This document shows, piece after piece, positions 13,668 to 63,612 of a DNA stretch of 64,000 nucleotides. Position numbers and translations under genes: made by a program. The DNA is from Myxococcota bacterium. Its GTDB lineage: Bacteria; Myxococcota_A; UBA796; CAJQPC01. The stretch lies in the NCBI GenBank assembly GCA_036012755.1, contig DASCPX010000211.1:9165-73164 (forward strand), given 5' to 3'. How positions within the stretch are numbered: the first letter of the stretch is position 1; each line of letters begins with the position of its first letter. The notes under the pieces were generated by a model. The model worked only from the letters and a program-made list of their open reading frames with translations, did not search any database and had not been told where the DNA came from.

Positions 13668-14621
13668 TCAGAGCGCGATGGCGTCGCGGCGTGCCTGCAG
13701 GAGCTCGGTCGTCGAGTTGTAGAGCCTGTACTTCGATGCGACCACGAGGCCCTGGTCGTAGCTCGTGTAGGCCTTCTGGAGCAGCACGAGGGTCTGCTCG
13801 TCGAGGAGCTCGTAGTAGAGCTCCAGCGCCTCTCCTTCGAGCTCGGCCGGCGGCGTGTCGTGCATGTCGTCGTAGAGTTCGATGTAGGCATCGCCCAGCA
13901 CGAGGAGGGACCGGATCATCCACTCGGGCTCCTCGGTCTCGATGACCTCGATGATGTGGGCCTCTGCGGTCTGGATGGCTGCGGCCCGACGAGCGAGGTT
14001 CTTCTCGGGCTTTCGCTTGTCCAGCCTGAGGTCCTCGACCGCCTCGAGCTCCATGGTGGCCAGGTGGTAGGCGGTCCGAGCCCGGAGCCAGCGCATCTCG
14101 TCGGTGTCCTCCGTCGCCCGCATCGCGCGGTCCAGCATCTCCTCACCGCGCCGGCGGTTGCCTGCCCGTTGCTCGGCGACGCCCTGCGCCATCTCGATGC
14201 TGATCCAGTCGACGCGTTCGTAGTCGACCAGCCGCGGGATCTTCCGGTACTCGCGCACGGACTCCTTCCAGCGGCCGAGCTCGTCCAGGCAGAGCGCTCG
14301 GCGGTAGCGGGCGTCGACGGTCCTCGCGCCCTCGGTCTCCAGGGCCTCTGTGTAGGCGGAGACCGCGAGGTCGTGCTCGCCCTGGAGCTCGTGAACGATG
14401 CCCAGCTGGTAGTGGATCTCCTGAGGATCGGCCCCGACCTCCAGGAGCCAGCCGAGGCGATGGACCGCCCCCTCGAAGTCCCCGTCCTGCCGTCGGGCGA
14501 GGGCCTCGTCGTAGACCAGCGGGTGGTCCTGGCGGTCGAAGACCTCCGCCAGGGCGGGTGGAGGCCTCTCCGGCGCGTAGGCCGGGATCTCGTGCAGGCA
14601 GGCGGTCAGGATCAGGAGCAT
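13668..14621 (-). CDS. TPR-repeat lipoprotein
   Basis: MLLILTAC lipobox-like start; IHYQLGIVHE..GEHDLAVSAY, ARYRRALCLDELGRWKES, SLLVLGDAY. Confidence 0.75.
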   Translation of the reverse strand: MLLILTACLHEIPAYAPERPPPALAEVFDRQDHPLVYDEALARRQDGDFEGAVHRLGWLLEVGADPQEIHYQLGIVHELQGEHDLAVSAYTEALETEGARTVDARYRRALCLDELGRWKESVREYRKIPRLVDYERVDWISIEMAQGVAEQRAGNRRRGEEMLDRAMRATEDTDEMRWLRARTAYHLATMELEAVEDLRLDKRKPEKNLARRAAAIQTAEAHIIEVIETEEPEWMIRSLLVLGDAYIELYDDMHDTPPAELEGEALELYYELLDEQTLVLLQKAYTSYDQGLVVASKYRLYNSTTELLQARRDAIAL

Positions 14622-14637
14622 GTCTGTGTAGACGGTC

Positions 14638-14676
14638 CCTCCGCCCGAGAGTTCCAGTCGAACTCCCGGAGGAGGG
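14638..14676 (-). terminator. stem-loop immediately downstream of the putative 6S RNA
   Basis: cctccg..gagagttc-cagtc-gaactc..cggagg inverted repeat; no U-tract. Confidence 0.35.
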
Positions 14677-14679
14677 CAC

Positions 14680-61072: not shown

Positions 61073-61119
61073 GGGGGTCTCCAGGGAGCTGGCCTGCTTA
61101 GGGCGCTCTCGCGGATCGG

Positions 61120-61935
61120 TCAAGCTCCGACGAGGGTCAGCTTCAGGTAGAGATCGCCGCCTTCCCAGCCCTTTCCGCGCAGCCTCAGGCGCGTTCCCGT
61201 CGTCGCCGCCGTCGGCACCTTCACGCGGAAGCGTCCCGTCTCCGCATCGACATGGATCGCCGAGCCCGCCTCGGCCGCGATGTCGAGTTGGAGGTCCTGC
61301 CTGCCGACCCGGAAAACCACGCGCAGATCCCCATCGCGGCCGCCCACCAGGCCCCGGTTGCCCTCGCCGTTGTGCCGGACGCGACCGCCGTCTTCGCAGG
61401 CGCTCGGGACCTGAACCCGGCGCGCGACCGCTTCCTCGACGGTGCCTGCGTCGTCACAGCGGCTGCAGGGATCGGCGGGGAGGACGCCGTCGCCGCCGCA
61501 GACCTCGCAGCGAATGGTCGACTCGAGACCGAGACGGACCAGGGTCTGCAGGCCGCTGCCCCGGCAGCCCGGGCAGTGGGCGCCGGTTCCGCCTCCCAGA
61601 CCTCCGCAGGCTCCGCAAGGTCCCAGGCGCTCGTAGCGCACCGTCCTCATCCCACCGCTGGCCGCCAGCGCCTCGTCGATCCCGACGAAGACCTCTACGT
61701 CCTCGCCCCTGCGGCGCTTGCGGCGGCCGGGGTTGGCTGGGGCGCCTCTGGGACCGGGGACGGGTCGGCGTCCGCGGAGCGCCTCGTAGGCGGCCACCGC
61801 CTCCTGGAATCGAGCGCTGGCCTCCGGCCCGGGGTTTCGGTCCGGATGCCACCGCATCGCCGCCTCGCGAAAGGCCTTGCGAATCTCGTCCTCGGAGGCG
61901 GTCGCGGAGACCCCGAGGACTTCGTGGGGCTGCAC
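61120..61935 (-). CDS. compact DnaJ-family chaperone with zinc finger
   Basis: HEVLGV, WHPDRN, four CxxCxGxG-type motifs, GDLY. Confidence 0.9.
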   Translation of the reverse strand: MQPHEVLGVSATASEDEIRKAFREAAMRWHPDRNPGPEASARFQEAVAAYEALRGRRPVPGPRGAPANPGRRKRRRGEDVEVFVGIDEALAASGGMRTVRYERLGPCGACGGLGGGTGAHCPGCRGSGLQTLVRLGLESTIRCEVCGGDGVLPADPCSRCDDAGTVEEAVARRVQVPSACEDGGRVRHNGEGNRGLVGGRDGDLRVVFRVGRQDLQLDIAAEAGSAIHVDAETGRFRVKVPTAATTGTRLRLRGKGWEGGDLYLKLTLVGA

Positions 61936-63612
61936 TCAGGGGCTCCAGGACAGGAGCCTGTCGGCCTGCTCCGAGACCAGCGCCTCCGTGTCGGGGCCGA
62001 GGGAGTTCGTCTCCTCGTAGTGATCGCCCTCTGCCTCGTCGAGGTAAGGGCTGCGCTCGTGGAGCTCGAAGTTGAAGGACGGGATGATGTAGCCGAGCTC
62101 GTCGTTGCCGAGCCCCACGATCCACTTGTTCGGCGCGGACATTCCGTCGGCGATGTACGGACCCTCCGGGGCGAGGTCCAGATCCGGGGGGTTCTCGTTG
62201 CCCTCGGTGACGATGTCGTAGAGGTCGGAGCCGGTGAGCGAGCCGTCGTAGCCGCCGAGCGCGGCCTCTGGGAAGAGCTCCCCCGGCATGCTCAGCAGCT
62301 CGAGGTCTCCCAGGGAGATGTGGTCCATGTCGGTGAGGACCCTGGGCCGGTTGTCGTCGTCGATGGTGGCTTCGGGGTCGTAGTCGTAGAGCTCGCGCGT
62401 GATCACGCCGATGGTGAACATCGCCTGGAAGCCGATGTTCATCACTGGCAGCTTGAACTCGCTGTGCTCGAAGGACAGGGAAGGGGAGATGGCCTCGCCC
62501 TGCTCGATCGCGTCCAGCGCCATCTCCCCGAGCAGCACGCCCACGGCCTCTGTGTGCTCCCAGGTCGCGCCAGAGAGATCGTCGCCGTCCGGTGTCTCCG
62601 TCGTCAGCCGCAGGGTGGTCATCATGCCTCCGACCATGCCCTGCAGGTAGATCGCGGTGCCGCCGACACCCTCCCGGGAGTAGGCATCCCAGGCCGATCC
62701 GCTCTCGACCGTCGTCCGCAGGTAGTGGACGAAGTCCGAGCTGATGAGGAGGTTGTCGGAGGCCAGGGTCTCCGGGTGGCAGCCCCAGTGCACGACGGTC
62801 GCGATGGTCTCTCCGCTGCTGTCCGCCAGGTGCAGCACGCCCAGCTCGTAGGGCAGCACCACGGGGTCGCGGGTGTCGCGGATGACGTTCGCGCTGCCCC
62901 TCTCCGGGTGGTACTCGCGCACGTCGACGCCGCCGAGGGTGGACGTCGCCACCTCCCGCTCGTCCTCGAGGGCCTCCTCGATCCCTGCGAGCATCTGCTC
63001 TCGCACCCACTGCACGTACTCGGGTTGGTAGCCGCTCTTGCCGATGCGCTCGCCCCATAGTCCGACCGTGTCGGGCCCCTCGTGCGTGTGGGTCGAGCTG
63101 ACCAGGATGTGGTCGATGTCCAGGCCACGGTCCGCGGCCTCCTGGCGGACGCGGAGGACGTCGTCGTGCATGAAGCCGACGAGGTCGACGCTGATGATGG
63201 CCATCGCGGTCTCGCCCTGGCGGAGCACCAGGGTGCGCGCCCAGACACCATCGGCGACGCCCTGCGCCGGGCGGCCGTTGCTGAAGCCGGCGAGCCACGT
63301 CGCCTGGAACACGCCGTCAGCCTCGCCCTCGTCCGCGACGGTCCAGCCCTCGTCCTCTGGACAGACCTGGTCGCACCCGCAGTCGAGCCAGCCATCCGTG
63401 GTCTTGCTCCACTCGCCGTCCCCATCGACGTCCGCCCACGACTCGAAGCAAGGTGGGACCAGTGAGACGCTGGACGCCCCCGCGCGCAGCTGGCCGTCGT
63501 TGTCGTCACAGTCGGCGTTCGGATCGCCCGGACAGTGGAGTTCCGGTTCCCACGCCAGGGCCGTGTCGCCGCCGTCGCGGTCCCTGCAGCCGAGCAGGAT
63601 CAAGAGCGTCAT
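61936..63612 (-). CDS. neutral/alkaline ceramidase-like lipoprotein
   Basis: MTLLILLGC; DGVWAR, STHTHEGPD, HPE, ISSDF, PGELFPE, GLGNDELGY, HYEETNS. Confidence 0.75.
   Translation of the reverse strand: MTLLILLGCRDRDGGDTALAWEPELHCPGDPNADCDDNDGQLRAGASSVSLVPPCFESWADVDGDGEWSKTTDGWLDCGCDQVCPEDEGWTVADEGEADGVFQATWLAGFSNGRPAQGVADGVWARTLVLRQGETAMAIISVDLVGFMHDDVLRVRQEAADRGLDIDHILVSSTHTHEGPDTVGLWGERIGKSGYQPEYVQWVREQMLAGIEEALEDEREVATSTLGGVDVREYHPERGSANVIRDTRDPVVLPYELGVLHLADSSGETIATVVHWGCHPETLASDNLLISSDFVHYLRTTVESGSAWDAYSREGVGGTAIYLQGMVGGMMTTLRLTTETPDGDDLSGATWEHTEAVGVLLGEMALDAIEQGEAISPSLSFEHSEFKLPVMNIGFQAMFTIGVITRELYDYDPEATIDDDNRPRVLTDMDHISLGDLELLSMPGELFPEAALGGYDGSLTGSDLYDIVTEGNENPPDLDLAPEGPYIADGMSAPNKWIVGLGNDELGYIIPSFNFELHERSPYLDEAEGDHYEETNSLGPDTEALVSEQADRLLSWSP

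Follow-up and report, generated by a model that had tools for sequence, protein, structure and literature searches.

Genome-wide occurrence and geometry of minimal signal peptides

In the Myxococcota bacterium of assembly GCA_036012755.1 (GTDB lineage Myxococcota_A; UBA796; CAJQPC01; 6.73 Mb, 68% GC, 96% complete), about one gene in six starts with an ultra-short, uncharged signal of lipoprotein type, roughly half the usual textbook length, in which a hydrophobic run beginning at residue 2 leads directly into a lipobox cysteine, most often at residue 8, and is followed by polar sequence. The feature was noticed in a 64,000-nt stretch of contig DASCPX010000211.1 (C211:9165-73164), referred to below as the window, and all genome-wide counts are based on genes called with a trained hexamer model (6104 genes, 91% coding), of which the 5951 complete ones form the counting set. 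The explanation that we favour, with slightly better than even confidence, is that these would be real minimal signals, exported through SecA-SecYEG and lipidated by ordinary Lgt, LspA and Lnt, and that a permissive translocase would enable their use.

A strict rule (start Met, 4-11 uncharged hydrophobic residues and [AGS]-Cys, with the cysteine at residues 6-13) was satisfied by 930 of the 5951 genes, in agreement with the original prediction of pervasive short signals, and this number lies far above those returned by the same rule with the cysteine swapped for another residue (W 71, H 38, Y 31, K 45, N 61, M 64, F 132, D 165 and E 175). The high D and E values are read as inflated by real signals of the signal peptidase I (SPI) type, and an estimated 50-130 or so of the 930 are chance matches or mis-started genes. 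A scan without position limit placed lipobox-like cysteines at residues 7-9 from the nearest start, far above internal and non-coding controls, and the trait is present on all 68 contigs longer than 20 kb. The SPI class is represented by 127 uncharged signals of 9-14 residues under a strict A-x-A rule, against 3-43 in the controls. The genome also contains 93 canonical lipoprotein signals, and its Pal, TolB and Skp homologues carry canonical signals, so that recognition looks relaxed rather than replaced.

The residue preceding the cysteine is A, G or S in the 930 genes, compared with 109 genes having other uncharged residues at that place, and leucine prevails at both -3 (61%) and -2 (59%). 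Shorter cores are more hydrophobic (mean Kyte-Doolittle value 3.2 with Cys at residue 7 and 2.2 with Cys at residue 12), and a later transmembrane-like segment occurs in only 11 of the 930 proteins. A basic n-region is absent from all 930 by the counting rule itself, and at most 130 of them could gain one, together with a PROSITE-like form, from an upstream start; rule-based predictors would therefore miss most of these signals, in agreement with what had been anticipated from the window.

Assignment of the start codons

The short starts are almost certainly genuine for the bulk of the 930 genes. No ATG, GTG or TTG lies upstream in frame in 473 cases and no start codon of translation table 11 in 271, while in 151 genes an in-frame stop is so close that the cysteine cannot lie beyond residue 13, whatever codon is used. 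The motif TAnnnT, of -10 box type, occurs at -12/-13 of 149 of the 930 short starts, compared with four of 387 upstream alternative starts, and at any other offset in no more than 14 starts; its placement suggests leaderless transcripts, which are likely to be frequent in this genome. Shine-Dalgarno (SD)-like motifs are found within -14 to -7 in 376 genes, with a peak at -11 to -9, and stop/start overlaps with the upstream gene in 195; at least one of the three marks is present in 613 of the 930. The same DNA pattern recurs in other genomes, with reversed-pattern controls near zero. In the signal-bearing genes, TAnnnT starts are about as often GTG as ATG (47 vs. 57 at -12).

The explanation that starts were mis-assigned or the assembly is faulty, the true signals being longer and charged, draws on the 278 genes that have an upstream start giving a cysteine at residues 14-35, on the 130 of the 930 that would satisfy a PROSITE-like rule and on a weak SD excess at the upstream alternatives, from which a minority of the 930 are probably canonical. 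Close in-frame stops, -10 boxes, SD spacing, gene overlaps, the sharing of short starts by independent genomes and the presence of the trait on every large contig refute it for the bulk, and as a general account it is extremely improbable.

All ten N-termini on which the original prediction was built were read in the window, with the cysteine, in order of position from 14621 to 63612, at residues 8, 9, 9, 8, 10, 8, 8, 8, 10 and 9; four of the starts are non-ATG (TTG at 39449; GTG at 42226, 46950 and 50083). The claimed lack of an upstream in-frame ATG, GTG or TTG holds for 20350, 42519 and 46950, where an in-frame stop is reached 16, 9 and 3 codons before the start, respectively, and the reported NTGA overlaps are present at 20350 (ATGA), 39449 (TTGA) and 50083 (GTGA). 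Three short, uncharged SPI-type examples were likewise found, at 58293, 60130 and 45187 on the minus strand. Lipoprotein-type starts beyond those first listed are located at 39111/39114 (MMALALLASC) and 14928 (MLLASLILLGLGC), both on the plus strand. The start at 50083 is ambiguous, with a competing ATG 15 nt upstream that gives MRGAIVMLLLLAC (Cys at 13, one Arg) and no orthologue in any of the five genomes tried. Longer upstream alternatives exist at 63612 and 61072 as well, and there SD motifs at -9/-10 and orthologues favour the short start.

Indicators of export and lipidation

The short-signal proteins are very probably exported, judging from their identity and composition. Uncharged signals of 10-14 residues precede the homologues of BamA (13 residues), SurA (13), DegP (10-13), YajC (10) and BamD. 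Among short-signal proteins with 1-8 cysteines besides that of the lipobox, the number of further cysteines is even in 465 and odd in 203 (p 1e-24); canonical lipoproteins of the genome behave in the same way (52 even vs. 17 odd), whereas a cytoplasmic proxy gave 650 vs. 722. Such parity fits disulfides formed in an oxidising compartment with the first cysteine left out. The early mature region is acidic (-3.2 per 20 residues vs. -0.5). The idea that this acidity compensates for the missing n-region was rejected, since the same charge stands behind canonical signals, and it is best taken as background. The BamD homologue (G000:C149, minus strand) begins with MFALLLTLSLPAVA and has no lipobox cysteine, and may therefore be a soluble SPI-type protein here. 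Queries with E. coli LptD, PstS, GltI and PssA matched no homologue, which does not imply absence.

The genome encodes two LspA, five Lgt, one Lnt over the cut-off and three LepB-family proteins, and the catalytic residues are kept in both LspA, all five Lgt, Lnt and LepB, the last retaining its Ser/Lys pair and conserved boxes. His103 is retained in only one of the five Lgt paralogues; Lgt proteins with Tyr at 103 or Cys at 146/151 are known to occur naturally (PMC13251419). The N-terminal region of the substrate is reported not to be directly involved in Lgt recognition (PMC4728403), and targeting signals are reported to reside also in mature domains (PMC5412566), which together make a stub signal plausible. 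Processing of the cysteine class by Lgt and LspA is a reading in which we have good confidence, and both enzymes look ordinary. The opposite possibility, that the proteins are exported and left unprocessed, the stub acting as a small anchor or the cysteine being otherwise modified, could appeal to the atypical leucine at -2, to the single His103-bearing Lgt and to the length of the stub, seven residues being unable to present the membrane-spanning helix that is usually assumed for LspA substrates. The strong A/G/S preference at -1, the sharing of cysteine and mature N-terminus with canonical-signal orthologues, the cysteine parity and the natural occurrence of the Lgt variants speak against it, and we regard it as very improbable.

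A special expansion of the lipoprotein enzymes was considered and rejected: Lgt is present in 3-6 copies in 19 genomes of the host's order and 2-7 in 12 outgroups, LspA in 1-2 copies in 15 order genomes and 1-4 in nine outgroups. Loss of deformylase, formyltransferase or methionine aminopeptidase (MAP) was also rejected, all three being present with the key residues of Def and MAP kept. Inspection by eye showed that in most LspA proteins of the order the catalytic aspartates are set in TDF[LI]R and E-[WY]-P, where same-class outgroups have TDF[LF]D and H-[WY]-P; this difference might represent a charge swap.

Orthologue series and taxonomic distribution

Orthologues of the CpoB-like gene of the window were recovered in 29 of the 30 genomes searched and keep the lipobox cysteine in 28 of 29, with the cysteine at residues 8-10 in most genomes rich in short signals and at residues 14-26, mostly with an arginine, in genomes poor in them. 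BamA orthologues show the same gradient from short to long, about six of 28 loci being unreadable at the N-terminus, and so do orthologues of three window genes, again with the cysteine conserved. Short-signal proteins thus share the mature N-terminus and its cysteine with orthologues bearing canonical signals. For the gene at 13668..14621, all five orthologues have a hydrophobic run ending in A-C and a start codon 7-11 codons before the cysteine, and the sequences upstream of the short start are unrelated among them; two sister-lineage orthologues of 60158..61072 carry arginine-containing signals of 16-17 residues.

The trait is restricted to a single order, where its occurrence is patchy. 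The pattern with cysteine at residue 8 matches 78 times in the host genome and at least 14 times in ten of 44 genomes of the order, and never more than 11 times in 257 genomes outside it; the corresponding pattern with cysteine at residue 7, applied to 151 genomes of the class, agrees, with one further family rich in matches. A quickly built SecY tree comprised 59 rows, 47 of them in the host clade; of these 47, 17 exceed 2.5 short-signal matches per Mb (a threshold chosen after the counts were seen), and the high-count label requires eight changes, at least six of them forced, compared with a mean of 14.9 for shuffled labels, which fits repeated erosion or gains with reversals. In 200-kb samples from two low-count genomes of the order, seven of 20 and 12 of 37 lipobox genes were short, some being doubtful by eye, whereas 354 kb from four same-class outgroups yielded three of 17 automatically called, of which one is plausible by eye. 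Mild tolerance of short signals thus appears to be order-wide and extreme use patchy, and the outside ceiling and the short genes of low-count members together place the boundary of tolerance at the order. SecY also falls within the host clade in many database records labelled Enterobacterales, Klebsiella, Bifidobacterium or Alphaproteobacteria, so these labels are probably wrong.

Order-wide changes in SecY and SecA

The genome contains single SecA, SecY, Ffh, FtsY and YidC proteins and SecDF-YajC. A thinner membrane was considered as a cause; the helices of SecY align with the E. coli protein without any gap. Position 187 of SecY (E. coli numbering throughout) is Ala or Ser in all 47 rows of the host clade, which has 100% support, whereas 28 outgroups of the class and phylum have Ile (22), Met (4), Ser (1) or Thr (1), with Ile in ten of ten from the same class. 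Phe192 is replaced by Thr in 63 of 67 rows, and only the tree count is non-circular for SecY, this 67-row group having been defined by residue 187. In SecA, L372Y together with N369S/T occurs in 16 of 16 sequences of the order, position 372 being Leu (8) or Val (2) in ten others, and A488G/S in five of the 16, including the host's own subclade. The Y372 motif was found in 39 of 44 genomes of the order, none of 14 other members of the class and 13 of 243 other genomes of the phylum. Motifs of this type outside the class include nine of ten genomes of family f31 and four of nine of family f35, both without ultra-short signals. Loss of an acidic SecA patch, which we take to lie at 289-294, was rejected as a candidate, since each of the 25 sequences other than that of E. 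coli, outgroups included, is gapped there. A single-sequence structure model of SecA was unusable (pLDDT 33.5).

We assume that SecA L372 contacts the signal peptide, and that I187 is part of a six-residue SecY ring; by our own offset, I179 in the numbering of PMC11186639 is presumably E. coli I187. In that source the ring is given as four core residues in mammalian numbering, with nearby ones extending the patch (PMC11186639). Adjacent to the changed SecA position, A373 lies in the Stem, which is counted in the signal-peptide cleft, replacing it by V, I or F produces a Prl phenotype, and A488 is named as a hotspot of such mutations (bioRxiv 10.1101/2021.08.31.458331); nothing on Leu372 was found in the literature searched. 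In E. coli SecY tested with a normal proOmpA signal, V411S translocates at log2 +1.66, F192L at +1.31 and F192Y at +0.06 (PMC13537251), and the host SecY has Ser at 411, as in V411S. The original prediction had proposed an altered mode of recognition at Sec, Lgt and LspA: its Sec part has gained circumstantial support from the order-wide SecY I187A/S and F192T and SecA L372Y/N369S, and its Lgt and LspA part found no support, the enzymes looking ordinary, with residues kept or naturally variant and paralogue numbers like those of outgroups.

In the reading that we favour, a signal stripped to its hydrophobic core and cleavage box would direct the protein through SecA-SecYEG, a translocase predicted here to be lax in proofreading signals. 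SecA would accept the preprotein largely via its mature part, and L372Y/N369S, with A488G/S in the host subclade, would lower the need for triggering by the signal; smaller residues at SecY 187 and 192 would let a helix of 5-9 residues open the gate. As a helix, the stub could not reach across the bilayer and would occupy the outer half of the membrane, which is where Lgt, LspA and LepB act, and the acidic early mature region would set the orientation in place of a basic n-region. An ancestor of the order may have tolerated stubs, after which n-regions would have been lost from one gene after another, extensively in some sublineages and only slightly in others. For the translocase changes a causal role is, on comparative grounds, evenly balanced or slightly favoured. 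The fuller evolutionary scenario is more tentative, and we hold it at a little less than even confidence: a natural Prl-type translocase (SecA L372Y/N369S, SecY I187A/S and F192T) would have relaxed selection, and sublineages would independently have eroded hundreds of signals to 6-9 uncharged residues. If it is true, export and lipidation run on a minimal stub unable to span the membrane as a helix.

Several observations weigh against the favoured reading. The SecY core ring (I86, I191, I278, I408) and SecA A373, H484 and Y134 are unchanged, 23 SecY columns separate the order from the outgroups, as any clade has private residues, and Ser or Thr stands at 187 in two of the 28 outgroups. Nearly all genomes of the order carry the SecA change and only ten of 44 reach the count of 14, so that the change is not sufficient; the 13 genomes outside the class with the Y372 motif, scored as a match in whatever gene, show only 0-4 short-signal matches. 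The link to the translocase rests on one evolutionary event. In E. coli, F192S gives only +0.28 and I187M +0.47 (log2), and I187A and I187S are absent among the five I187 matches listed in the available portion of the source (PMC13537251). Ser411 is not a reduction in size in its own context, since most relatives have Gly411. One plausible short signal, MLPLLLTAC, belongs to a same-class outgroup with Ile187. On the side of the signals, -2 Leu lies outside the textbook lipobox [LVI][ASTVI][GAS]C (PMC12462473), the cysteine parity of the SPI class is not significant (46 even vs. 34 odd, p 0.22), and the early mature region has the same charge after short signals as after canonical ones (-3.21 vs. 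-3.16, p 0.9).

Much of this evidence serves the main competing explanation, namely that ordinary Sec, Lgt and LspA handle real short signals, the SecA and SecY residues being neutral clade markers and the textbook minimum reflecting selection for efficiency in fast-growing model bacteria. It would account for the unchanged core ring and known Prl sites, the patchiness under a uniform translocase, the two other families having Y372 motifs and no short signals, and the short signal in an outgroup, and it is compatible with the reported independence of Lgt from the substrate's N-terminal region (PMC4728403). It leaves unexplained why all 257 genomes outside the order stay at 11 matches or fewer when the host has 78, and why low-count members of the order still have a larger share of short lipobox genes than same-class outgroups; on these grounds we consider it rather unlikely.

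Another entry route, either co-translational insertion through SRP and YidC or a dedicated factor of this lineage, followed in both cases by Lgt and LspA, is suggested by the very Leu-rich cores, more hydrophobic when shorter, by the presence of Ffh (compared with E. coli only), FtsY and YidC, and by a 479-aa membrane protein that terminates in a SecD P1 head (PF22599, confirmed; L347:5496-6935, G000:C43), in which neither the SecY profile nor BLASTP detected SecY likeness. Long homologues of this fusion occur in only four of 151 genomes (among them G383, G316 and G384), two of the four being low-count, and it was rejected as a general cause. A YidC change was rejected as well, no order-wide change being seen in the three stretches inspected and the position of E. 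coli 366 being occupied by Lys or Arg both in the order and in the outgroups. BamA, which carries a short signal here, is one of the outer-membrane proteins, which are normally exported via SecA, and an alternative route is on the whole improbable.

Relation to known signal peptides and significance

Like canonical Sec/SPase II substrates such as E. coli Lpp, the short-signal lipoprotein candidates have a hydrophobic core, a small residue at -1, an invariant cysteine at the mature N-terminus and a polar Pro/Asp/Glu-rich tether, in a genome with intact lgt, lspA and lnt and with orthologues that switch between the two forms. They differ in lacking the basic n-region, in the position of the cysteine (6-13, mode 8, instead of about 15-35), in the mostly leucine -2 residue and in their share of about 15% of genes, canonical lipoprotein signals, as described by the PROSITE PS51257-style rule, being found in a few percent. 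The SPI-type signals share the A-x-A box, polar mature N-terminus and intact LepB of the canonical Sec/SPase I system, and differ by being uncharged and 9-14 residues long, where a basic n-region and about 18-30 residues are usual. Lacking both the n-region and the usual length, the short signals are variants rather than members of the canonical classes. Type IV prepilin and archaeal class III leaders also lose only a few residues, but they are basic and are cut before a retained hydrophobic segment of about 20 residues, whereas here the hydrophobic stub precedes the cleavage box. The order-wide changes adjoin sites of the E. coli prlA/prlD suppressors (SecA 372 by 373; SecY 187/192 by ring residue 191), SecA 488 is Gly or Ser in part of the order, and the Ser found at SecY 411 is super-active in E. 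coli; no classical allele (SecY I408, I278; SecA A373V, H484, A488, Y134) is present, and laboratory prl suppressors restore one defective signal at a time, whereas the signals concerned here are those of a natural secretome, known from sequence alone.

No description of the trait was found in the literature searched, most subscription journals being outside reach. Myxococcota secretomes have been treated with SignalP 5 and PSORTb, and the phrase 'short signal' does not occur in the available portion of that source (PMC11495043). Two textbook requirements, a positively charged n-region and a length sufficient for crossing the bilayer, are broken here at proteome scale, by hundreds of natural minimal signals with orthologue series running from canonical length to eight residues. 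The short list of SecA and SecY point changes makes the minimal signal-peptide requirement directly testable, rule-based annotation would probably miss or mis-start much of the envelope proteome of the order, and very short tags may be useful for secretion engineering.

Signal-bearing genes and neighbouring loci in the window

Genes of the window with short signals, together with longer forms for comparison, are collected in Table 1.

Table 1. Signal-bearing genes of the window (window coordinates; TPR, tetratricopeptide repeat)
Position	Strand	Product or start	Signal	Evidence or remark
12452..13579	+		Uncharged 14-residue SPI-type, MFAALTLLSTAALA	Just outside the span 13668..63612
13668..14621	-	TPR protein	MLLILTA-C (Cys 8)	Sequence and 5 orthologues
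14928..15962	+		Uncharged lipoprotein-type, MLLASLILLGLG-C (Cys 13)	GGAGG upstream
19628..20353	+	OmpA/Pal-like	Canonical length (Cys 20, one Arg), odd A-S-K-C box	Internal control
20350..21186	+	CpoB-like (TolA_bind_tri + TPR)	MMLLLLSA-C (Cys 9)	ATGA overlap, no upstream start, orthologue series
39111..39452	+	Small Cys-rich protein	(M)MALALLAS-C (Cys 9-10)	
39449..40123	+	Cys-rich protein, TTG start	MTLLSLLA-C (Cys 9)	TTGA overlap; no Pfam family
40155..41507	-		MLLLILA-C (Cys 8), then Thr/Glu-rich tether	
41594..42226	-	Cys-rich protein, GTG start	MALLSLALG-C (Cys 10)	SD at -13
42214..42519	-	Small Cys-rich protein	MTLLLLA-C (Cys 8)	Stop 9 codons upstream; TAnnnT at -14
44645..45187	-	GTG start	SPI-type short, MSLLLMCALASA	
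46950..48362	+	GTG start	MLLLLLC-C (Cys 8)	Stop 3 codons upstream
50083..50688	+	GTG start	MMLLLLA-C (Cys 8; 7 from ATG at 50086)	
52960..54780	-		Long uncharged lipoprotein-type, MSCLTLTFGSALLALSG-C (Cys 18)	Intermediate form
57607..58293	-		SPI-type short, MTLLLLGLAFA (11 aa)	
58547..60130	-		SPI-type short, MLTLLLCLPANA (12 aa)	Stop 9 codons upstream
60158..61072	-		MTLLLTLLA-C (Cys 10)	
61936..63612	-	Ceramidase-like (below Pfam cut-off)	MTLLILLG-C (Cys 9)	

The signal at 46950 has Cys instead of A, G or S at -1, and the single orthologue found reads ...LSFLFAC. Most orthologues of the OmpA/Pal-like protein have Lys or Arg at -1 of the lipobox (ASKC, AAKC, GSRC), others reading AGC or VGC; this non-textbook box seems to be tolerated. 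Four small Cys-rich genes of lipoprotein type at 38889-42519 form two overlapping pairs flanking a Thr-rich gene, and none of these Cys-rich genes matched a Pfam family. Judging by N-termini, positions 1-12354 resemble a dcw cell-division cluster, with genes that we take to be mur genes, mraY, ftsW, ddl, ftsQ and ftsZ, and with murG and ftsA seemingly absent from their usual places. Directly after the CpoB-like gene, positions 21216-26973 hold what is presumably a rimP-nusA-infB-like cluster.

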